From: a virus
Taxonomy: Duplodnaviria > Heunggongvirae > Uroviricota > Caudoviricetes
IMG/VR virus record: IMGVR_UViG_2778261527_000008
Reading direction: 5' to 3' (one strand)
Length of the DNA stretch: 35,461 nucleotides
In this document: one piece after another, positions 1-35,461 of the stretch
Layout of the letters: every line of letters begins with the position of its first letter
Position numbering within the stretch: the first letter of the stretch is position 1
Notes under the pieces: generated by a model
What the model was told of the DNA's origin: nothing
What the model saw: the letters and a program-made list of their open reading frames with translations, nothing else
The model's database searches: none
Translations under genes and position numbers: made by a program

Positions 1-21
1 ATGCGAGGGACAGTCGAAATT

Positions 22-351
22 ATGCGTTATCCCGTCACTCTTACACCCGCGCCGGAAGGCGGTTATATGGTTTCTTTTGTGGATATCCCTGAAGCGTTGA
101 CGCAGGGCGAAACTGTCGCTGAAGCGATGGAAGCGGCAAAAGATGCTTTACTGACCGCATTTGATTTTTATTTTGAAGATAACGAGCTTATCCCGTTACC
201 TTCGCCATTAAATAGTCATGATCACTTTATTGAAGTACCTTTGAGCGTCGCCTCTAAAGTATTGCTGTTAAATGCTTTTTTACAGTCAGAAATCACTCAG
301 CAAGAGTTAGCCAGGCGAATTGGCAAACCTAAATGTTGTAAACCCCAATAA
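22..351 (+). CDS. hicB: HicB-family antitoxin, C-terminally divergent/truncated (frame open from window position 1; first plausible ATG at 22)
   Basis: Translation MRYPVTLTPAPEGGYMVSFVDIPEALTQGETVAEAMEAAKDALLTAF... matches my recollection of the enterobacterial HicB N-terminal domain; ORF ends ...RRIGKPKCCKPQ* at 349-351 where canonical HicB continues into a DNA-binding C-terminus; GC content drops after ~334. Confidence 0.55.
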   Translation: MRYPVTLTPAPEGGYMVSFVDIPEALTQGETVAEAMEAAKDALLTAFDFYFEDNELIPLPSPLNSHDHFIEVPLSVASKVLLLNAFLQSEITQQELARRIGKPKCCKPQ

Positions 352-574: not shown

Positions 575-1345
575 TTATTTGCACCCGTACTGGTCAACAT
601 AGATTTTAGAATATCCTTGTTTTTGTACTTCTAAGCGAATCATATCTTGATTATCACGCCACACATAATATTTTTTGTTATCCACTTGACCTTCATATTG
701 CATAGCACCATTCTGATGCGTCACGGTTTTTGTTTTTGCTTTATGTGCGTTATAATTATCACGATACACAAATTCAATAATTTCCCCGTCTTTTACTTTA
801 AGTTTAAGTTCACCAGAGTTATAACGAGGATAACTAGGGTCTTTAACTACTTTTGTTTCTACCCCGTCGTGGATTTCCCATTCATAGTGAACATCGCATT
901 GTAATTCCATATCGCCTGTAAATCCTTTTGGTTTCTCTTCAACCTTCGGTTCTTCTACCACTTTTTCTTCCTGTTTCGGTTGTTCTTCTTCAACCTTCGC
1001 AGAAGTCTCTGAAACGCTCCCTGACGCGGTTTCTTCTTTAGATAATACATTCATCAAGTTTTGGATTTGAGCGTTGTATACAGCCTCCAGTGGCTGAATC
1101 TGCCCGATATTGATCATTGTATCACGAACAGTTTTATTCCAGTTGCGTTGCTCTTGTTTAAGCGACGGGTCAATCTTAACAGCCTTAACATATACTTCAT
1201 GAAGTTTAGAATCCAGTGCGGAGATTGACTCATTAGAACAAATAAACTTCTCTGATTTGGTAGTAGCTTTAGCGCAATCAAAGGACGCAGCATTAGCACC
1301 GAAAGCAGTAGCAGAAAGCACGATAGCAGCGATAATGTTTTTCAT
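575..1345 (-). CDS. secreted protein with DUF1311/LprI-like N-terminal domain, Glu/Lys-rich linker and C-terminal beta-rich domain (moron candidate)
   Basis: 256-aa ORF; signal peptide MKNIIAAIVLSATAFGANA; FDCAKATTKSEKFICSNESISALDSKLHEVY resembles the DUF1311 signature; RBS AAGAGG upstream of ATG. Confidence 0.45.
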   Translation of the reverse strand: MKNIIAAIVLSATAFGANAASFDCAKATTKSEKFICSNESISALDSKLHEVYVKAVKIDPSLKQEQRNWNKTVRDTMINIGQIQPLEAVYNAQIQNLMNVLSKEETASGSVSETSAKVEEEQPKQEEKVVEEPKVEEKPKGFTGDMELQCDVHYEWEIHDGVETKVVKDPSYPRYNSGELKLKVKDGEIIEFVYRDNYNAHKAKTKTVTHQNGAMQYEGQVDNKKYYVWRDNQDMIRLEVQKQGYSKIYVDQYGCK

Positions 1346-3230: not shown

Positions 3231-4232
3231 TTAAGCTGCGTATGCGTAGGCGCTGTAGTTGGTGTCGTAGATAGCGTCATGCAGTGCCATCTGTGCTTCG
3301 CGGATCTCGTCTTCGTTTACTTCAATCTCTTCTTGTTCTTCTTCGGTATCTTCCCAAGTGGTTTTGAATTTAGCCATAAAGTTATTGCGCAGGGATTCAA
3401 AGTTAGTAACAGGTGCGGATTTTTCTTCAACCGGAACTACTACCGGATCAGCTTCTTTCTGTTCTTCCTGTTCTACTTTTTCACCATTACCCCAGCGATA
3501 GTTAAGGAGTTCTTCCAGTTCTTCATCAATGGATTTTTCTTCAACTGCTTCAACTTCAACCGCTGCTACTTCGAAAGTGGTTTCCTGTGCTGCCAGTTCA
3601 GCTTTCAGAGATGCGTTTTCAGCTTCCAGTTCAGCAATGCGTGCTTTCAGTGCTTCAACTTCGGAAGATTCAACCACTGCAACTTCTTCTTTAACTTCTT
3701 CAACTACTACCGGAGCAACTTCTTTCTGTGCTTCTTTTTTGCAGAAGAAGGAGGAAGTAACCTGTAATGCGTGGTTGTAGAAGGAACCGCCTTTAGCGGT
3801 GTTAACAGTACCAGAAACATCCTTTACAGTGGATTCGGTAGCAACAGTACGGAAGCGTTTTGCGACTTCCTGGGTCTCTACGCCGTATTCGTTACGCTTG
3901 CTCTTGTGATGCATTACAGCACGGAAGCCGGAAGCAGTTTTAACAACAGCCAGATAGTAAGTTTCATCGGCTTTAACAGCACGAGCGAAGCAATAAACGG
4001 ATTCACCTTCTACCAGTGTAGGTTTAACGTGACGTTTGTCGAAACGGTTAGTGATCTGCCATTCAGCACCGTCTTTGATGCCAGCATTCTGACGCATTTC
4101 GGTCAGAGTCTTACCGGATACTACTTCAAAGGATTTGTCTTGTTTGCTTGCTTTACCTTCCATGACGGTAATGTTCAGTTTGCCGTTGGATTTAATAAAC
4201 AGGTTGAAGGTGATGCGCTTAGAATTTTTCAT
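3231..4232 (-). CDS. hypothetical protein: basic N-terminal domain, coiled coil, strongly acidic C-terminal tail
   Basis: 333-aa ORF with GGAG RBS; EVEALKARIAELEAENASLKAELAAQ coiled coil; Glu-rich tail; family not recognised. Confidence 0.5.
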   Translation of the reverse strand: MKNSKRITFNLFIKSNGKLNITVMEGKASKQDKSFEVVSGKTLTEMRQNAGIKDGAEWQITNRFDKRHVKPTLVEGESVYCFARAVKADETYYLAVVKTASGFRAVMHHKSKRNEYGVETQEVAKRFRTVATESTVKDVSGTVNTAKGGSFYNHALQVTSSFFCKKEAQKEVAPVVVEEVKEEVAVVESSEVEALKARIAELEAENASLKAELAAQETTFEVAAVEVEAVEEKSIDEELEELLNYRWGNGEKVEQEEQKEADPVVVPVEEKSAPVTNFESLRNNFMAKFKTTWEDTEEEQEEIEVNEDEIREAQMALHDAIYDTNYSAYAYAA

Positions 4233-4349: not shown

Positions 4350-4532
4350 TTACCAGACCTCGGCGGTAATCTTTACTTTAATGTCATACTTCTTTAAGAG
4401 TTTGTGGAAGGTTGATTGATCAATACCTTCACCTTTAAACCATTCACCCATCACTACATCAGGTGTCAGTTCAAAATAACGCTTTGCCATTTCTAAAACG
4501 ATTTCACGAGTGAACTTAACAGGTCGTGCCAT
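4350..4532 (-). CDS. small hypothetical protein (60 aa), possible DNA-binding regulator
   Basis: ATG preceded by AGGAGG RBS; first gene leftward of the noncoding control region. Confidence 0.4.
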   Translation of the reverse strand: MARPVKFTREIVLEMAKRYFELTPDVVMGEWFKGEGIDQSTFHKLLKKYDIKVKITAEVW

Positions 4533-4874
4533 CTTATATCCTCCTAAATCTGGAATAATGATTTCTTAAAAAAGAGCTTTTCGCTCTGAACAATTCTATT
4601 TATAAAATGTTTTTCGAAAAACCCTGTAAAACCACTGTATATCCGATCAGTGGGAGCACGAATTGCTAAAGAGAAGATTAATAATTAATCAATTCGTACA
4701 TTATTCAATCGAATAAGCACTGTATGTTTAGCCAGTTCTGTATGAATTAACAGTGAGTCAGGGGATTTTCAGAAGTGAACAATCATTTCATGCATGTATT
4801 TATACACGAAAAAATCTTGCGTATCATCAATATGGGGATTGTTTCGAAAATTTCAACCCCTACCAACGAGAAAA

Positions 4875-4903
4875 AGCATAAAATAATCCTTGACAGTTGT
4901 CAA
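4875..4903 (-). promoter_or_regulatory. candidate sigma70 promoter reading leftward, embedded in palindrome TTGACA-gt-TGTCAA
   Basis: on minus strand -35 TTGACA (4903..4898), 17-nt spacer, -10 TATGCT (4880..4875); the palindrome could also be an operator. Confidence 0.3.
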
Positions 4904-5100
4904 TACACTTGATCTAAGCGAGAGATGACTATCAAAATTTTTGTGTGAAAATGGCGGATAACGATTATCAACCTTTATAACCTATTATAGCACGGCGACC
5001 TTTTGATAATTCTTTTTAAATCATGCATTTACGGCGATTTTTGGTGATTTTCTGGTTAAATAATATACAAGAATTTTCTATCAAAATTTTTGATGAAAAA

Positions 5101-5220
5101 CCTACACTACAAACCTACGCTTTAAAGGGATTGGCCTACACTACACTAGCCAGTAAACCTACACTATAACACCCTCAAACCTACACTATGAAACCTACAC
5201 ACCTACACTAACCCTACACT
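5101..5220. repeat. iteron-like direct repeat array, core CCTACACT (6 perfect + 2 variant copies)
   Basis: copies at 5101, 5114(var), 5135, 5158, 5180, 5194(var), 5202, 5213; three successive spacings of 21-23 bp; often preceded by AAA. Confidence 0.6.
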
Positions 5221-5408
5221 TCAATCTCATAAGTGTATGATATTGAAAGACATTTCACCCCACAGACCATAGAATATAAAATTCGAACTAACGTTCTCCT
5301 TTTTGCTCGTTTTCTCTCACTACGTTCAAGAAAGATCTCGCAAAAAGAATACGGCGTAGCCGTGCGCGAAGCGCCCATCAACACCTTCTAAGACCTGCAA
5401 GCAGGATT

Positions 5409-5561
5409 CGAAAGGGATTGGATAGTTCGCTTCGCTCACGTTCACGCCTACGGCGTTCACTCGCTTTTGAAAGGATTTTCTTAGAAAGGGATTTAATACT
5501 AGTTACTAACTGATTCTAGTAAACGAACGAAGTGAGTAACAATCACTTTCTAGAAAGGTAT
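5409..5561. repeat. second direct-repeat family GAAAGG(G)ATT (4 copies)
   Basis: copies at 5409, 5468, 5483, 5552 inside a GC-richer structured segment. Confidence 0.4.
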
Positions 5562-5799
5562 TGGTTATCCCTTCGGGATTGCAACCTTCGGTTGCTAAAT
5601 TGCTTCCTGATTATTATTTCTCCAAAAGAAAGATTCTTATATTCTAAAGATACTTCTTCGTTTTGATGATGATTTAATCAAACCATGAAGGAGGGCTTTA
5701 GCCCGACTGAATACAATCACCTTTCATAATAACAAGAATTTTCTCTTTATAAATAATAGTGAACTTACTTGATTCACTTTCTTTTAGAGGATTTCCACT

Positions 5800-6267
5800 A
5801 TGAACCATAAAATGACTACCACTACTCCTTTTATCCTTCTGGGTCTGGATTCTGATAGCTTCCACAATGACAAGTTAATGAAGATGTTCCGTGAACGTGG
5901 TTATAACATCCTTTTCAACTCTGATGAATCCCATTTCTCTAGTGCATGGTATGCGTTTTACCGTAATAAGAAGCCGACCATTGTAGTTAACTGCTTCACC
6001 GATGAAGAACGCTTAAAGTACCAGGATCTACCAGCAATTATTGTCCGTGATGATCTGCCGTTTCAAGTCCGTTCCGGTGACATTGATCTGGGTAGCTTCG
6101 TTACTGTCTATGAACTGGATGAAGCAATGTTTAACTACGGCAAAGAAACCGCTCAGGAAGCCCCAGAAGAAGATGAACAAGACGAAGATGACGACGACTA
6201 CGCACCAATCTGTTTTTCTTCTCAGAATGGCTTCTACGGTTACGACGAAGGCTTAGATATGCTGTAA
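5800..6267 (+). CDS. hypothetical protein with strongly acidic C-terminal tail (EEDEQDEDDDDY)
   Basis: 155-aa ORF, AGAGGA RBS, E. coli-like codon usage; first rightward gene after the control region. Confidence 0.5.
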   Translation: MNHKMTTTTPFILLGLDSDSFHNDKLMKMFRERGYNILFNSDESHFSSAWYAFYRNKKPTIVVNCFTDEERLKYQDLPAIIVRDDLPFQVRSGDIDLGSFVTVYELDEAMFNYGKETAQEAPEEDEQDEDDDDYAPICFSSQNGFYGYDEGLDML

Positions 6268-6536: not shown

Positions 6537-6633
6537 GATAAAAACTTCTTATAAATAAAATTGTTCCGGTGATGCTGCCGGAACTAGGAGGATCAATATC
6601 ATTATCGCAAAACCGTTTAAGGGGAATTTAATT

Positions 6634-7782: not shown

Positions 7783-8388
7783 TTATTTAGAGGACTTACA
7801 TTTTATCGGAAAAAGTTCTCCATCGTCAACCGACATAAAGAACTCTGCCTTAATCCCGTACTTCTTCAACCGTGAATAATATGTACCCCGACTAATATCA
7901 ACCTTGCGCAGCACTTCGAAGAACTCTTTAGGATTCCTGTAATAGTGGCTATATCGCACGTTAGCGAGTTCTACAAACAATTCCCTTGTATCACCATAGC
8001 CTTTCTTGAAAGCCACGTTACGATAGCGTGTAATGGCATGATTCAATCTCTTCTGTTTAAGCACTTCCCTGATCGGCTTCCACTGCAACCGATAGATAGG
8101 ACCGTCATCAATGCGATAATAACGCTTGATATCAAAATCAAACCAATCTCGGACTCTCCGAAACTCTGTATGTGATGTTCTATGCTTCTTAAAGAAGTTG
8201 TGAACGTCTCTATAGCCATTATCACGGTAAAATTCTATTAAAATCTCTTTCGCTTCCTCACGGCTAAACCCAGATGTTGTGTAATCGGTCTTTAAGTGCT
8301 TATGTTTTACTGGCAAACGATATTCATGATCGGTACAACAAGACAAGGCTAATTCTACTTCATCTCTTTGTTGCTGATTAATTAGCAT
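7783..8388 (-). CDS. hypothetical basic protein with C-terminal HTH-like segment
   Basis: 201-aa ORF; Arg/Lys/Tyr-rich; ISRGTYYSRLKKYGI resembles an HTH recognition helix. Confidence 0.45.
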   Translation of the reverse strand: MLINQQQRDEVELALSCCTDHEYRLPVKHKHLKTDYTTSGFSREEAKEILIEFYRDNGYRDVHNFFKKHRTSHTEFRRVRDWFDFDIKRYYRIDDGPIYRLQWKPIREVLKQKRLNHAITRYRNVAFKKGYGDTRELFVELANVRYSHYYRNPKEFFEVLRKVDISRGTYYSRLKKYGIKAEFFMSVDDGELFPIKCKSSK

Positions 8389-14714: not shown

Positions 14715-15005
14715 ATGTTCAAATTATCAGAATCACAATTAAATCGAATGTTTAAAAGTGCTCCTGTATTTTCGGTGGAAGGTGGTAAATCAATTCGTGC
14801 TTATCATGAAATTACTACTACCGACGAATCGGGGGTAATGACAGAAACAGAATTTCTATTCTGTCGTGAGGGAGACTTAAAGCAAGGTGATATTGTCACA
14901 GTAGAAAACCAGCGTTTCAAAGTTCAATACGTTAAGCGCAATGGTGACAATACTTGTGATTGCTTTATCACTTTAGCAGGGGGTACACATGCTCGCTACC
15001 GTTAA
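14715..15005 (+). CDS. head-tail adaptor / head completion protein (candidate)
   Basis: 96-aa ORF directly after capsid gene, AGGGGG RBS; synteny only. Confidence 0.4.
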   Translation: MFKLSESQLNRMFKSAPVFSVEGGKSIRAYHEITTTDESGVMTETEFLFCREGDLKQGDIVTVENQRFKVQYVKRNGDNTCDCFITLAGGTHARYR

Positions 15006-15411
15006 TAATATGCCGAGACTGAAAATCAAACGCGCCTTGCAAGATATTATCGAACAAGATTTAGGTCTGGCTTTAAACGTAGAACAAACTCAGCAAGGCT
15101 TTAGTGATGACGTGGTTTGTTGGATTACTGGCATGAATGAGACTTACACAAGGGTCCGTGGCGGTAATGCAATGCAAGCTGAATGCGTTATCGAAATGCA
15201 GTTATATTCTCAGATTCATGAAACGAAAATTCATGAGGGTATTTGCCAGATAATCCAGATTCAGCCAGATAACCCACGATTTAAAGATTTGGGCTTCTCT
15301 ATTTCAGATATCACTCCAGTAGCTTCTAATACCGATTATGACGATGATTCTAGTGATGGGGGTATCGTTGGGACACTTAGCCTTAAATTTTCTTATCTAG
15401 CGCGTTTTTAA
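14989..15411 (+). CDS. head-tail joining or tail completion protein (candidate)
   Basis: 140-aa ORF overlapping previous stop by 17 nt; synteny only. Confidence 0.35.
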   Translation: MLATVNNMPRLKIKRALQDIIEQDLGLALNVEQTQQGFSDDVVCWITGMNETYTRVRGGNAMQAECVIEMQLYSQIHETKIHEGICQIIQIQPDNPRFKDLGFSISDITPVASNTDYDDDSSDGGIVGTLSLKFSYLARF

Positions 15412-32280: not shown

Positions 32281-33960
32281 TTAAATTCCAAATTCTTGTA
32301 ATGGACCTGGTATTTCTTCTTCTGGTTTCCAGTTCTTATCTGTCAGCATGTCTAAACATGGATGCAGAACAAGCCCGTTACTCTCCAGAATCTGCCTATC
32401 ATTGATAGTCTTCAAATCAACGAAGATCCGGCCTTTCCTCGGTCCTCTTGAATTTTCTATTACAACTCTCTGGGTCTTGCCATCGATGTATTCCAGTACA
32501 AACAAGTTTTTGTACTTGTCAATCCTGCTACACCCGATCCGTTTTAGAGCTTGCTTAATCTTAAACCGGACCTTAATGCGATCCTCGTTGTAAACATCTT
32601 CTAAATCAAATTCTGCGAGCTTCTCCCAGCCTTGAGAGTCAACAGAATACATTTCCTCTTCTGCCATCTTAAGTTGATTGTAGAGTGTTTCACGCTCGCT
32701 ATTGAGGGTAGTAATCTGATCGGCTAGCTCCTTCGTTGCTCCTGTCATAGCAGAAAGGGTAATCAGGTTATCAATCTTGCGTGATATTTCATCAATCTGT
32801 ACTTTCAAAGCCGGAACCGGATTAGCCTTATCTTCAGCAATCCAGATTTTATCAGCCAGCAATTGCAATACAGCTTTCTCTAATTGGTCGCCGCGAAAAC
32901 TCCAGTTTGTATGCACACATTCAATACGACTAGAGCGCATTGCATCGCATGAATAACGATATTGGTTAGGCCGTCTGTTTGTTCCTTTCACCTTAACCAT
33001 AGCGGAACCGCAATGTTCACATTTCAATAGACCAACACCACTAAGCAAGGGAATAGGTTTAGCTTCTTCTTTGTCTCCAAAGTTACATGCTCTAACACCA
33101 ATGCTTTTCTTAAGGTGATAAAACTCAGCGTCATCTAGCACACGAGGATAATAATCCTTTAACTCATACTTAACGCCATCTACAGAGATTTCCTTGATAC
33201 CAATCAAAGCGCGGGTATGGAACAACCTTTCAATCATTGCCCGTGACCAGTTTGAATGCCTCTTGTGACTTGCGGCTGGTGGTGGTGTGTATGTCGCGTT
33301 AAGGTGATCCAGTATCTCGGCGGTTGACCGTCCATTCCTGCGTAATTCCACAACTTCCTGAACAATAGGGAAGAAGACCGGATGAGGAAGCACATAACCA
33401 GATGTGGTATCAGTCCACCACATATTCTTTCCAATTTCCTCGATTGCAACAGCCGGATTTTGTGGATTTTCTTGATGAGCTTTAATCTTAATCAGTGCGC
33501 TTGAGTTAGTACGATTGCGCTTAGTCTGGCTTTCCTCATTACCACGGATGAATAAAAGGATGGAGAACATCAGGTCCATCGGGTTAGCGGTAACAGTATC
33601 AAGCGAGTAGATCTTGTTATCCATGCCAGTAACAATGGTTATCCCCCTACGGATGATTGAAAGGAATAACTCCTGCGCACTGACAATATCGGCACGGGAT
33701 AAACGGTCCAAGTTTTCGATGAATAGCCAGCTACCAACAGGAACGGATCTACCTATTGCATCAAGGAAACGAGATAGCGCCCCTGTTTTGGAGTTAGCAC
33801 CCTTAAACGCAGATACACCCAGATCCTGATAATCATTTACCAGTTCAAGGTCATACTTTACCGCAATCTCTCTAGCCATCCTGATTTGTCGTTCATAACT
33901 CGAACCATCATTCTGACGCATAGACGAGAAGCGAATATACGAATACAGTTTAGTTTTCAT
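32281..33960 (-). CDS. large serine recombinase (integrase/resolvase family)
   Basis: 559 aa from ATG at 33960; N-terminal resolvase catalytic motif YIRFSS..Q; Cys-rich zinc ribbon CEHCG...C..C; coiled-coil segment. Confidence 0.8.
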   Translation of the reverse strand: MKTKLYSYIRFSSMRQNDGSSYERQIRMAREIAVKYDLELVNDYQDLGVSAFKGANSKTGALSRFLDAIGRSVPVGSWLFIENLDRLSRADIVSAQELFLSIIRRGITIVTGMDNKIYSLDTVTANPMDLMFSILLFIRGNEESQTKRNRTNSSALIKIKAHQENPQNPAVAIEEIGKNMWWTDTTSGYVLPHPVFFPIVQEVVELRRNGRSTAEILDHLNATYTPPPAASHKRHSNWSRAMIERLFHTRALIGIKEISVDGVKYELKDYYPRVLDDAEFYHLKKSIGVRACNFGDKEEAKPIPLLSGVGLLKCEHCGSAMVKVKGTNRRPNQYRYSCDAMRSSRIECVHTNWSFRGDQLEKAVLQLLADKIWIAEDKANPVPALKVQIDEISRKIDNLITLSAMTGATKELADQITTLNSERETLYNQLKMAEEEMYSVDSQGWEKLAEFDLEDVYNEDRIKVRFKIKQALKRIGCSRIDKYKNLFVLEYIDGKTQRVVIENSRGPRKGRIFVDLKTINDRQILESNGLVLHPCLDMLTDKNWKPEEEIPGPLQEFGI

Positions 33961-34023
33961 ACCATTTCCAAACAAAAACGCCCCTACCGCGTATTATAAC
34001 GATAGGGGCCAGGTGATTAAAGA

Positions 34024-34443: not shown

Positions 34444-34488
34444 AGTAGAATTTCCTCTTGTTGTTTGAATTACGATATATTTATATCA

Positions 34489-34751: not shown

Positions 34752-35189
34752 TTAAGCGCGAACGATGGTCAGAGTATCCAGCAAACCTTTTTCGTATAAT
34801 TCGAAACACGTTTTATATTGCTCAATCTTCCAACCGTAGCGGGTGATCTTATTCAGTAGAATAATCACGGTATTCTCATCTAGGTATTGTCCTTGCTTAC
34901 CAATTACATATGACTCGCGGGATAGTCTCAGCTTACGGAAACCTTTAACACCTAATTCCTTAGCCACCGCTTTAACCTCGTTAATCTCACCTTCTGCGGC
35001 TACATATTCAGCGTCGATAATCTCAGTTGATGATCTCAGTGCTACCAGAACTAAGGCCATTGCTTCTTCTTCGGTACGAGCAACACCAGCTTTCTCGAAA
35101 GTCATCTCACCAAATTTACGAGTCATAATATTGAACATTGTCTGTATTCCGTTTAAATCGGCGGGAATAGTACCCGCCAAATTAGACAT
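34752..35189 (-). CDS. hypothetical protein
   Basis: 145-aa ORF; start overlaps upstream gene stop. Confidence 0.4.
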   Translation of the reverse strand: MSNLAGTIPADLNGIQTMFNIMTRKFGEMTFEKAGVARTEEEAMALVLVALRSSTEIIDAEYVAAEGEINEVKAVAKELGVKGFRKLRLSRESYVIGKQGQYLDENTVIILLNKITRYGWKIEQYKTCFELYEKGLLDTLTIVRA

Positions 35190-35461
35190 TACTTCTTGCT
35201 GATAAACTCTTTAGCGATAAAGTTGATTACTTCTTTCAGCTTCTTGTCTGTATCGATGCACGCTGGTAATTCTTCTTTAATATCCTGCGGCAGATACACA
35301 TTCCCTTTAAAGTGGAGGAAACCATCATTACCAATCATGTAGGAGAACATCCATTCACAATCGTTATCCGCTTCCCAGAACGCCACGGTCTCATCGTCAA
35401 TCAAGGTAATGTCCATGTTGCGACGTGCTGCGTAGTTGATGATTGCTTTACCGATGTTCAT
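35189..35461 (-). CDS. hypothetical protein (start coincides with window edge; may be N-terminally incomplete)
   Basis: 90-aa ORF whose ATG is the last three bases of the window. Confidence 0.35.
   Translation of the reverse strand: MNIGKAIINYAARRNMDITLIDDETVAFWEADNDCEWMFSYMIGNDGFLHFKGNVYLPQDIKEELPACIDTDKKLKEVINFIAKEFISKK

Follow-up and report, generated by a model that had tools for sequence, protein, structure and literature searches.

What is the role of a compact, motif-crowded segment of non-coding DNA that lies between two divergent operons of an Escherichia coli prophage? The question is raised by the window, a stretch of 35,461 nucleotides (nt) of Caudoviricetes DNA (IMG/VR record IMGVR_UViG_2778261527_000008), in which the segment 5340-5600 is found within a gene-free stretch of 1268 nt (4533-5799). 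An earlier inspection of the letters, hereafter the sequence-only reading, had listed repeats, complementary pairs and tandem hairpins in this segment and had offered three interpretations: a structured noncoding RNA (ncRNA), a long regulated leader of the gene starting at 5800, or protein-binding sites. Its observation is partly confirmed here and its interpretation partly supported. The explanation favoured, with a probability of roughly 0.4, is that the segment is a conserved set of cis-acting transcription punctuation signals and protein-binding boxes beside a putative iteron-type replication origin, and not a free-standing RNA gene. The motif list is thereby turned into parts: an allele-specific repeat cassette with an orphan protein, a co-varying hairpin pair with a predicted leftward terminator, and a shared box array. 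This kind of element is known; new are this composite, the orphan partner protein and the sharing with lytic T4-like phages. The segment taken alone is most likely ordinary regulatory punctuation.

In the favoured explanation a leftward transcript of 5351-5456 would fold into a long hairpin running directly into UUCUUUUU, and leftward transcription would stop at ~5343, ahead of a spacer and a direct-repeat block. The latter would be the probable replication origin, bound by the allele-specific protein p333. Boxes found in 5460-5565 would be operators, bound by a phage or host protein that all relatives have in common. Two tandem hairpins, h5/h6, would attenuate or cap rightward RNA before an AT-rich module shared with RB49-type phages, upstream of the 5800 gene. 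The analysis shows the structures, the covariation within them, the linkage of alleles and the junctions of the mosaic; termination, binding by proteins and a function as origin are inferred.

The pattern of motifs exceeds chance. The string TAGAAAGGNATT occurs, at up to one mismatch, in four copies in 35 kb, all of them within 155 nt (5408-5562). Markov simulations give 3.2 +/- 1.8 triloop hairpins of the C(GNA)G/C(UNC)G class with a stem of 4 base pairs (bp) or more; the window contains 10, and half of them (5/10) fall in 5351-5595. All motif strings of the sequence-only reading are present, although most begin 1 nt further on than first noted. The GC-rich island is as described (GC 0.56 at 5350-5449 vs 0.23-0.38 on either side), and so are the complementary pair (GCGAAGCG at 5366, CGCTTCGC at 5428) and the local palindrome CCTGCAAGCAGG, found at 5394. 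Three of the four claimed copies of GAAAGG(G)ATT fit (5410, 5469, 5484), but the fourth, at 5553, reads GAAAGGTATT and is off-pattern. The direct repeat TACGGCGT is found at 5350 and 5449, but it is a by-product of each arm of an inverted repeat being a small palindrome.

The comparison set comprises 46 related loci, of which 29 come from IMG/VR, 15 from metagenomes and two from E. coli genomes; they are cited individually by L numbers below. A scan of GTDB species representatives gave no further relatives for covariation, and scans of metagenomes and IMG/VR returned relatives of the same prophage family only, none more distant. The gene-free region measures ~1250-1390 nt and retains its order of elements in all 46 loci, yet it is mosaic. 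Within it, 5097-5460 is a single cassette that occurs as at least four alleles, which differ in their direct repeats:

Allele A, this window: CCTACAC direct repeats
Allele B: TTTTGCCCCTGAAA direct repeats
Allele C: TCCCCG direct repeats
Allele D: ATCCCCCGGTATTAG plus GATGTACAAG direct repeats

The right part of the cassette holds a GC-rich structure with the following parts:

5351-5456: inverted repeat of 106 nt, GC-rich and two-fold symmetric, a "hairpin of hairpins"
5353-5373 and 5428-5448: its 21-nt arms, 81% complementary
5351-5363, minus strand: h1, ACGGC-GTA-GCCGT; the minus strand reads ACGGC-UAC-GCCGU, then AUUCUUUUUG
5364-5374: mini-hairpin GCGC-GAA-GCGC, which holds GCGAAGC and has an inverted copy CGCTTCGC at 5428-5435
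5394-5405: apical hairpin CCTG-CAAG-CAGG, inside the inverted repeat
5444-5456: h4, ACGCC-TAC-GGCGT, the mirror image of h1

Alleles A and B share the cores GCGCGAAGCGC and TCGCTTCGCTCAC letter for letter, although outside the conserved cores the two can be aligned here only weakly. The GCGAAGCG/CGCTTCGC core is kept in both alleles and, as CGCGAAGCG, in RB49; the sole variant of GCGAAGC seen is GCGTAGC (L011, L013, L018, L019, L020, L033, L034). Both small hairpins carry compensatory changes. Hairpin h4 reads ACGCC-TAC-GGCGT in allele A, ACGTC-TGC-GACGC in allele B and ACTCC-TAC-GGAGT in the RB49 intergenic region, and h1 reads ACGGC-GTA-GCCGT, GGGC-GTA-GCCC and CCGC-GTA-GCGG in A, B and RB49, respectively. 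Over nine hairpin units 95.6% of the cells pair and four of the five pairs show double changes (12 cells); the observed score is reached by 0/500 shuffles, and all slid controls are much lower. This covariation is anchored by an objective alignment of alleles A and B and by the RB49 homologue. Judged from these comparisons, the small hairpins are genuine selected structures.

Read on the minus strand (5363..5351), h1 is a stem-loop followed directly by a U-run, and the terminator scan calls it in the window and in L034. The site thus has the GC-rich stem-loop and immediate U-tract of an intrinsic terminator, its tail being ATTCTTTTTG. The RB49 homologue of h1, TCCGC-TAC-GCGGA, is called terminator-like on the transcribed strand of RB49. 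Alleles A and B keep a flank AAAAAGA(A/T)AT; alleles C and D keep its shorter core AAAGA(A/T)AT(T), have no second arm and carry after that core a 6-7-bp GC hairpin, so that the minus-strand tail is U-rich. An A-rich flank followed by a GC hairpin is therefore found at this position in all four alleles, and a leftward terminator-like hairpin at the right edge of the cassette is, in sequence terms, their common denominator; the site is weaker in alleles B and C. The minus strand of allele A, ACGGCUACGCCGU AUUCUUUUUG, resembles intrinsic terminators, including the bidirectional ones made of A-tract, hairpin and T-tract, in being A-rich on one flank and T-rich on the other. It differs from them in its length of 106 nt, its symmetry, its two sub-hairpins, the GCGAAGCG core, the boxes inside it and a poor rightward U-tract; termination here is predicted, and rightward the inverted repeat would be a weak terminator at best. 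Two variations of these hairpins were also recorded. The C-allele hairpin GCGCCCTGCGGGGCGC (L006, ~2560-2575) is exactly reverse-complemented in L044 (~160-175), where it reads GCGCCCCGCAGGGCGC, and has thus been flipped in place. In the interior of the allele-B inverted repeat, the copy number of a 10-nt unit ACTAGATGAT varies by single gains or losses (L010, L015, L037).

The second component of the segment is a family of short boxes, GAAAGGNATT in the forward (F) and AATCACTTTC in the inverted (R) form, which together make CTTTC/GAAAG pairs:

5381-5393: R box CAACACCTTCTAAG, inside the inverted repeat, forming an inverted pair with the next
5408-5419: F box TCGAAAGGGATT, inside the inverted repeat
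5467-5562: box array, with F at 5467-5478, F at 5482-5493, R at 5541-5552 and F at 5551-5562

The inverted members (5381-5393, 5541-5552, 5713-5727) had been missed by the sequence-only reading. The clearest pair is the near-palindrome AATCACTTTCTAGAAAGGTATT (5541-5562). A comparable pair, AATTACTTCTAG ... CTTAGAAGGAATT, is present in allele B, where the spacer is another one, and weaker copies are found just after the direct repeats, at 5243-5254 in allele A (two mismatches) and as GAAAAGGATTGG in allele B. Further boxes lie near 5713-5727, and one member of the family is similar to the ribosome-binding region of the 5800 gene. The boxes vary among relatives in number, order and spacing, giving module variants of 133-136, 157 and 177-179 nt, and L023 carries a perfect 26-bp palindrome in this module. 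Because the box sequence is conserved while the arrangement is free, the boxes are most likely protein-binding operators rather than a defined RNA fold, as far as sequence can tell. The earlier proposal of protein-binding sites thus gains from a family that is box-like in its conserved sequence, both orientations and variable copy number and spacing. The boxes share with phage operator arrays the CTTTC-N(0-4)-GAAAG inverted pairs, their presence in several copies between divergent operons and, in one relative, the 26-bp palindrome. They depart from such arrays in that some are inside an inverted-repeat hairpin and one resembles a ribosome-binding site (RBS); as operators they are putative sites. 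Candidates for binding the array are the conserved 201-aa protein (7783-8388), the 60-aa protein (4350-4532), the 155-aa protein (5800-6267) and a host factor. A role of the GGA-containing boxes as a CsrA sponge, considered by eye, was rejected: one box has no GGA, the boxes are outside hairpin loops and they occur in both orientations.

A global RNA fold of 5467-5601 was also rejected. RNAalifold applied to ten variants found no compensatory change there and several broken pairs, so that the covariation looked for in the paired elements exists for the small hairpins and is missing from this fold. The segment nevertheless folds better than shuffled sequence. The z-scores on the plus and minus strand are, respectively, -3.0 and -6.0 for 5340-5600, -2.9 and -4.1 for the inverted repeat (5340-5462), -1.0 and -3.6 for 5463-5566, -2.0 and -2.9 for 5563-5612, -3.1 and -5.7 for 5338-5722, and -1.7 and -2.8 for the allele B inverted repeat. 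The clearly lower values of the minus strand in every sub-segment and in allele B are what a structured ncRNA of ~160-380 nt would lead one to expect, transcribed leftward from a promoter near 5513-5542 or 5726-5753 to the h1 terminator (~5343). The repeated AAUCCCUUUC of such an RNA would provide anti-Shine-Dalgarno-like seeds against GAAAGG/GAGGA-type sites, for instance UUAGAGGAUUU of the 5800 gene; alternatively, a long rightward leader would be its antisense target. The canonical terminator with which it would end suits this RNA, as do the promoter-like sites TTGTTA-18-TAGAAT (5542..5513) and TTTATA-16-TATTAT (5753..5726), which recur in relatives, and two single-side changes in h4 (L004, allele B) that give G-U on the minus strand and an A-C mismatch on the plus strand. 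Against it, covariation does not extend beyond the small hairpins, relatives break pairs of the 5467-5601 fold, and internal modules are swapped, enlarged by 22-44 nt or inverted among relatives. Moreover, promoter-like matches are at chance level, and the -35 box of the 5542 site is lost in the 157- and 177-179-nt variants. The RNA has no Rfam relative: the whole window gave no match at the gathering threshold, and an E-value search of 4400-5900, taken up to E = 10, found no family, its hits all being to unrelated families with no E below 0.7 and a top score of 22 bits against a cut-off of 81. With these results, to which whole-repeat insertions and deletions in the interiors are added, a discrete multi-helix ncRNA is not supported, and a minus-strand RNA is considered unlikely.

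That reading had also reported that no open reading frame (ORF) above 20 codons with an RBS is present. In fact ORFs of 28-56 codons occur, some after AAGG-like sequences. A conserved small-protein gene was rejected, the ORFs being frameshifted by insertions and deletions in relatives, some of 1 nt (e.g. GGTTATCCC vs GGTATCCC, TTAGAAAGG vs TTGAAAGG), and one being cut at 5461, where the allele-specific part ends.

Rightward of the boxes lies the third component:

5567-5595, plus strand: h5/h6, triloop hairpins ATCCC-TTC-GGGAT and GCAACC-TTC-GGTTGC in tandem, with a moderately U-rich tail behind them

The two hairpins, ATCCCTTCGGGAT (5567) and GCAACCTTCGGTTGC (5581), are where the sequence-only reading saw them, but they close UUC triloops and not UUCG tetraloops. 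Being 13 and 15 nt long, they would be shifted in register by a cUUCGg loop and left with 1-2 bp; a true cUUCGg terminator is found elsewhere in the phage (2945-2962). They are near-invariant, with few changes in linker and tail and one lineage in which the loop UUC has become UGC. In L006, L009, L034 and L044 they are replaced at the same junction by GCTTCGC plus a GACGCTC-NNN-GAGCGTC hairpin, which is called a plus-strand terminator in L006. Since an unrelated hairpin substitutes there, the position appears to require a structure, and the simplest reading of the sequence is that h5/h6 are a rightward attenuator or an RNA-end structure at a module junction.

Could the structured product instead be read rightward? 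Either a discrete ncRNA ending at the tandem hairpins (~5285-5600) or a long 5800-gene leader with attenuators that need antitermination would make use of h5/h6 and of their replacement, both of which face rightward. Promoter-like sites exist at 5247-5282, and TTTATA-17-TATCAT (4799-4827) is kept in three alleles. The same loop type is found in canonical plus-strand terminators of this phage, with UUC/UUCG loops and proper U-tracts, at 2847-2863 and 2945-2962, and the plus strand still folds better than shuffles (z about -3). However, the plus strand is the less structured one in every segment, so that the minus strand, on which a leader of the 5800 gene would not lie, is favoured throughout if RNA structure matters, and the tetraloop argument was a mis-parse. 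The 5247-5282 promoter-like site is not retained in allele B, no covariation is seen for a global fold, and Rfam gives no match. A plus-strand RNA, leader or discrete, is thus quite improbable.

A probable protein partner of the non-coding DNA is linked to the left part of the cassette and encoded by a gene beyond it:

3231-4232, minus strand: p333, an orphan protein of 333 amino acids (aa) whose N-terminal domain is allele-specific and which also has a coiled coil and an acidic tail
5097-5224: direct-repeat array of ~8-9 (A)CCTACAC(TA) copies, several at 22-nt spacing (22/22/22)
5225-5350: spacer from the repeats to the inverted repeat, ending in the A-tract CAAAAAGAAT, which is AUUCUUUUUG on the minus strand

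Nucleotide diversity of allele A is 0.004-0.07 in the cassette, with 0.018-0.07 in the near-invariant spacer and 0.004-0.02 over 5301-5450; outside it reaches 0.10-0.20 in the flanking non-coding DNA and 0.18-0.32 in neighbouring genes. Protein p333 accompanies allele A only. Alleles B and C encode at the same place proteins of the same size and architecture that are 26% identical to p333, and the variable N-terminal domain of these proteins spans ~170 aa. The pairing of repeat allele and p333-type protein allele has no exception (A 21/21, B 17/17, C 1/1), and it persists though the 60-aa gene and the left-hand non-coding DNA that lie between them recombine freely. Because the two alleles always associate, p333 probably binds the 5097-5224 repeats; it is likely a new repeat-binding initiator or regulator. 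No Pfam or PHROG family matches the protein, and tblastn against phages gave no hit. A large database contains 120 near-identical hypothetical proteins, and an exhaustive search among 1.84 billion representative proteins found only six relatives.

Iteron-type origins with a cognate initiator are known from lambda (O/ori), RK2 (oriV) and P1 (oriR). Their layout is paralleled here by phased repeats, several at 22 nt, that are matched one-to-one to the variable N-terminal domain of a nearby protein, binding being predicted from this co-variation, and by an AT-rich block on the left (GC 0.23 at 5000-5099) and a GC-rich block on the other side of the repeats. As the spacing of 22 nt is phased and the prophage has no recognisable replication gene, an iteron-type origin is the most likely role that can be assigned to 5097-5224. 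Unlike the initiators of such origins, p333 belongs to no known initiator family, and allele A has no DnaA boxes. In an allele D locus (L009, ~2070-2140) two DnaA-box-like 9-mers with one mismatch, TCATCCACA and GTATCCACA, were seen among the repeats.

Several observations weigh against the favoured explanation. With regard to transcription, the minus-strand hairpin of allele B has only 4 bp, its U-run is ~10 nt downstream and the scan does not call it, so that termination in this allele would be weak; h5/h6 have no strong U-tract; and promoter-like matches across the region are no commoner than in shuffles. The covariation set includes paralogous units that were selected by eye. Both the 106-nt symmetry and the strictly unchanged GCGAAGCG of the two arms and of RB49 exceed the needs of a terminator and therefore point to sequence-specific or DNA-level recognition beyond termination. 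With regard to replication, no DnaA box (TTWTNCACA) exists in the whole window, where 4.1 are expected, TTATCCACA is absent from 4533-5800 at up to one mismatch, and the control region has no integration host factor (IHF) consensus. A single-sequence AlphaFold model of p333 was unusable (predicted local distance difference test, pLDDT, of 45) and showed no recognisable fold. The origin role of the repeats is putative, and they could instead be operators or another site.

A comparison can also be drawn with plasmid RSF1010, whose oriV is bound by RepC and carries two 40-nt inverted repeats, ssiA and ssiB (PMC8567376). The arms at 5353-5373 and 5428-5448 would then be a DNA-level origin element, that is, opposed single-strand priming signals exposed as p333 opens the neighbouring repeats and AT-rich origin DNA, the hyper-stable GCGNAGC/CCGNAGG mini-hairpins keeping the sites free of SSB. 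The layout parallels RSF1010 and R1162 oriV (PMC8567376) in its succession of direct repeats, spacer and large inverted repeat, the last forming one hairpin on either complementary strand, and in mini-hairpins of the C-GAA-G type, together with a repeat-binding protein specific to its repeats, which here is predicted. A motif class GCGNAGC has been described, with mini-hairpins at phage and plasmid priming sites such as those of G4, St-1 and RSF1010 ssiA (CCGAAGG) (PMC13037366); in the cassette GCGAAGC is found on both arms in alleles A and B and also in RB49, and its variant GCGTAGC stays in the class. The clustering of five such triloop hairpins and the co-inheritance of the cassette with the p333 allele are further points for it. 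The opposed hairpins beside the repeats exist, though, in alleles A and B only (h1 plus GCGAAGC on top, h4 plus GCGAAGC on the bottom strand), alleles C and D having one hairpin and no second arm. The same hairpin units are found in an RB49 intergenic region that has neither the repeats nor p333. The strand of the GNA loop is not conserved, the C-allele hairpin being flipped between L006 and L044, and GNA loops automatically mirror the UNC loops of ordinary terminators, which this phage has elsewhere. The system further differs from RSF1010 and R1162 in the lack of sequence similarity to ssiA/ssiB and of homologues of the RepA helicase and the RepB' primase: in the prophage proteins that were scanned, neither such a dedicated enzyme nor any recognisable primase or helicase family turned up, and DnaA boxes are missing. 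A priming role of the arms is consequently quite doubtful. The fuller proposal, that 5097-5460 is a p333-run origin of an uncharacterised E. coli prophage lineage with the inverted repeat as its opposed priming signals, in the manner of the RSF1010 iterons plus ssiA/ssiB, has a similarly small chance of being right; such an origin might additionally be gated by a convergent pair of sense and antisense RNAs terminating in the repeat. If true, it would be an RSF1010-like origin in a phage without recognisable primase or helicase, run by an orphan initiator. Strand polarity of the GNA loops had been considered as a sign of DNA-level function and was set aside, weakened by the UUC/UUCG-loop terminators elsewhere and by the flipped hairpin of L044.

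The mosaic DNA is partly shared with another type of phage. Junctions between mosaic parts are sharp at 5461 in many relatives, others being at ~5522, 5553, 5609 and 5684, and most of them are beside hairpins: the 5461 junction is 5 nt past h4, the ~5609 one is past h6 and the ~5684 one precedes a hairpin at 5693-5704. From the alignments, the hairpins mark points of module exchange among relatives. One exchanged module lies outside the flagged segment:

5605-5683: module X, AT-rich, with the near-palindrome TTTGATGATGATTTAATCAAA

Module X is 82% identical over 76 nt to an intergenic stretch in 59 phage records, mostly from Escherichia phages (among them RB49, JSE and Phi1), and it is inverted in three loci (L034 at ~3310-3400, L043, L045). 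In the same RB49 intergenic region, pieces like h1 and h4 are found together with CGCTTCGCG and ACTTCTAGTAA, their order being rearranged. When IMG/VR was scanned with the pattern, this prophage family, two RB49-like contigs and chance matches in GC-rich coding DNA were returned, and nothing else. An LprI-like gene (575-1345, minus strand) has 95-97% nucleotide identity to a gene of the lytic RB49 group (Krischvirus), which points to recent gene exchange, since elsewhere the prophage lacks close relatives among phages. Non-coding cassettes and one gene thus appear to have been exchanged between a temperate prophage and lytic RB49-type phages. In addition, module X was seen to be duplicated in RB49-type phages (L003, 1247-1659).

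Shuffling in RB49 and phi1 is mediated by PeSL (promoter-early plus stem-loop) cassettes (PMC2839356). The prophage region resembles them in that GC stem-loops adjoin AT-rich promoter-type DNA in gene-poor stretches, modules are exchanged at stem-loops (5461, ~5609, ~5684) and homology to RB49 intergenic DNA is direct. It differs in being part of a temperate siphovirus-like prophage and not of a T4-like myovirus, in having stems that are not of the polyG/polyC type and in that no flanked ORFans or mini-circles are known here; neither strand of 5600-5690 showed a sigma-70 consensus promoter, and the RB49 counterpart showed none either. Stem-loop-mediated module shuffling would thereby extend beyond T4-like genomes. 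In a further explanation the segment would be largely non-functional debris, remnants of promoter/stem-loop cassettes from RB49-type exchange that persist only as hairpin recombination hot-spots and play no part in the prophage itself. The homology to RB49-group intergenic DNA, the recent exchange of the neighbouring gene (95-97% identical), the position of junctions at hairpins, the inverted modules and the variable copy number would all fit. But cores and hairpins are kept, with compensatory changes, across alleles that otherwise align only weakly; length (1250-1390 nt) and element order hold in all 46 loci; and diversity over 5301-5450 is below that of the adjacent genes. Pure debris is unlikely because of this conservation and of the compensatory changes, and the explanation as a whole ranks as very improbable.

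The gene-free stretch separates two operons:

Left of the gene-free stretch, minus strand: leftward operon with the 60-aa, 333-aa (p333) and 80-aa genes
Right of the gene-free stretch, plus strand: rightward operon comprising, among others, a Rha-like gene and the 155-aa gene at 5800

The whole window is a prophage of 35 kb with hicB as its insertion site, as seen from a 99.5% match to E. coli CE0007a (NZ_CP119011) and its annotation; E. coli DEC5A is another lysogen. The phage identity follows from genes for a gpA-type large terminase, a large serine recombinase, a portal protein, tail proteins and an endolysin. In 57 of 5426 complete E. coli genomes, and always on the chromosome, the non-coding region has homologues, so the prophage family is present in ~1% of complete E. 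coli genomes. A MITE/REP-like mobile element (miniature inverted-repeat transposable element or repetitive extragenic palindrome) was rejected: the region occurs at 60 places in these 57/5426 genomes, with a median of one per positive genome, and its flanks are those of this non-coding region. Megablast with the non-coding region found no close isolated phage, and no phage in the collection exceeds 36% identity in the portal protein. The literature yielded nothing relevant on a hicB-integrated prophage. Since there is no close isolated relative and the prophage has no recognisable replication or repressor genes, the 1.27-kb gene-free region is the best handle on its replication and control.

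Some minor observations concern the remainder of the window. The hicB antitoxin gene is split by the prophage (window 1-351 and 35189-35461), so that the lysogen keeps hicA and a truncated hicB, and the integrase is the large serine recombinase of 564 aa (32281-33975). ARAGORN reports a 91-nt transfer RNA for glutamate (tRNA-Glu; 15176-15266, minus strand) inside an ORF of the structural module (14989-15411), probably a false positive. Left of the repeats, 4985-5045 contains strings that resemble the lambda cohesive-end sequence GGGCGGCGACCT: these are ACGGCGACCT (4992) and TACGGCGATT (5030), flanked by exact 15-nt repeats CTATCAAAATTTTTG (4929, 5078). The stretch is a possible candidate cos site for the gpA-type terminase; its cos-like sequence is not constant, being different in L034. 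The strongest promoter-like site of the region is TTGACA-17-TATGCT (4875-4903, minus strand), kept in all four alleles examined. It faces, at ~35 nt, the plus-strand site TTTATA-17-TATCAT (4799-4827), kept in three alleles, and the two opposed sites could be a face-to-face promoter switch. Finally, TATAAATA, the T4 late-promoter consensus, occurs six times against 2.5 expected. Four of its copies are correctly oriented 35-85 nt upstream of accessory genes (4597-4604 and 34478-34485 on the minus strand, 5748-5755 and 6550-6557 on the plus strand), although the copies might be no more than -10-like boxes.

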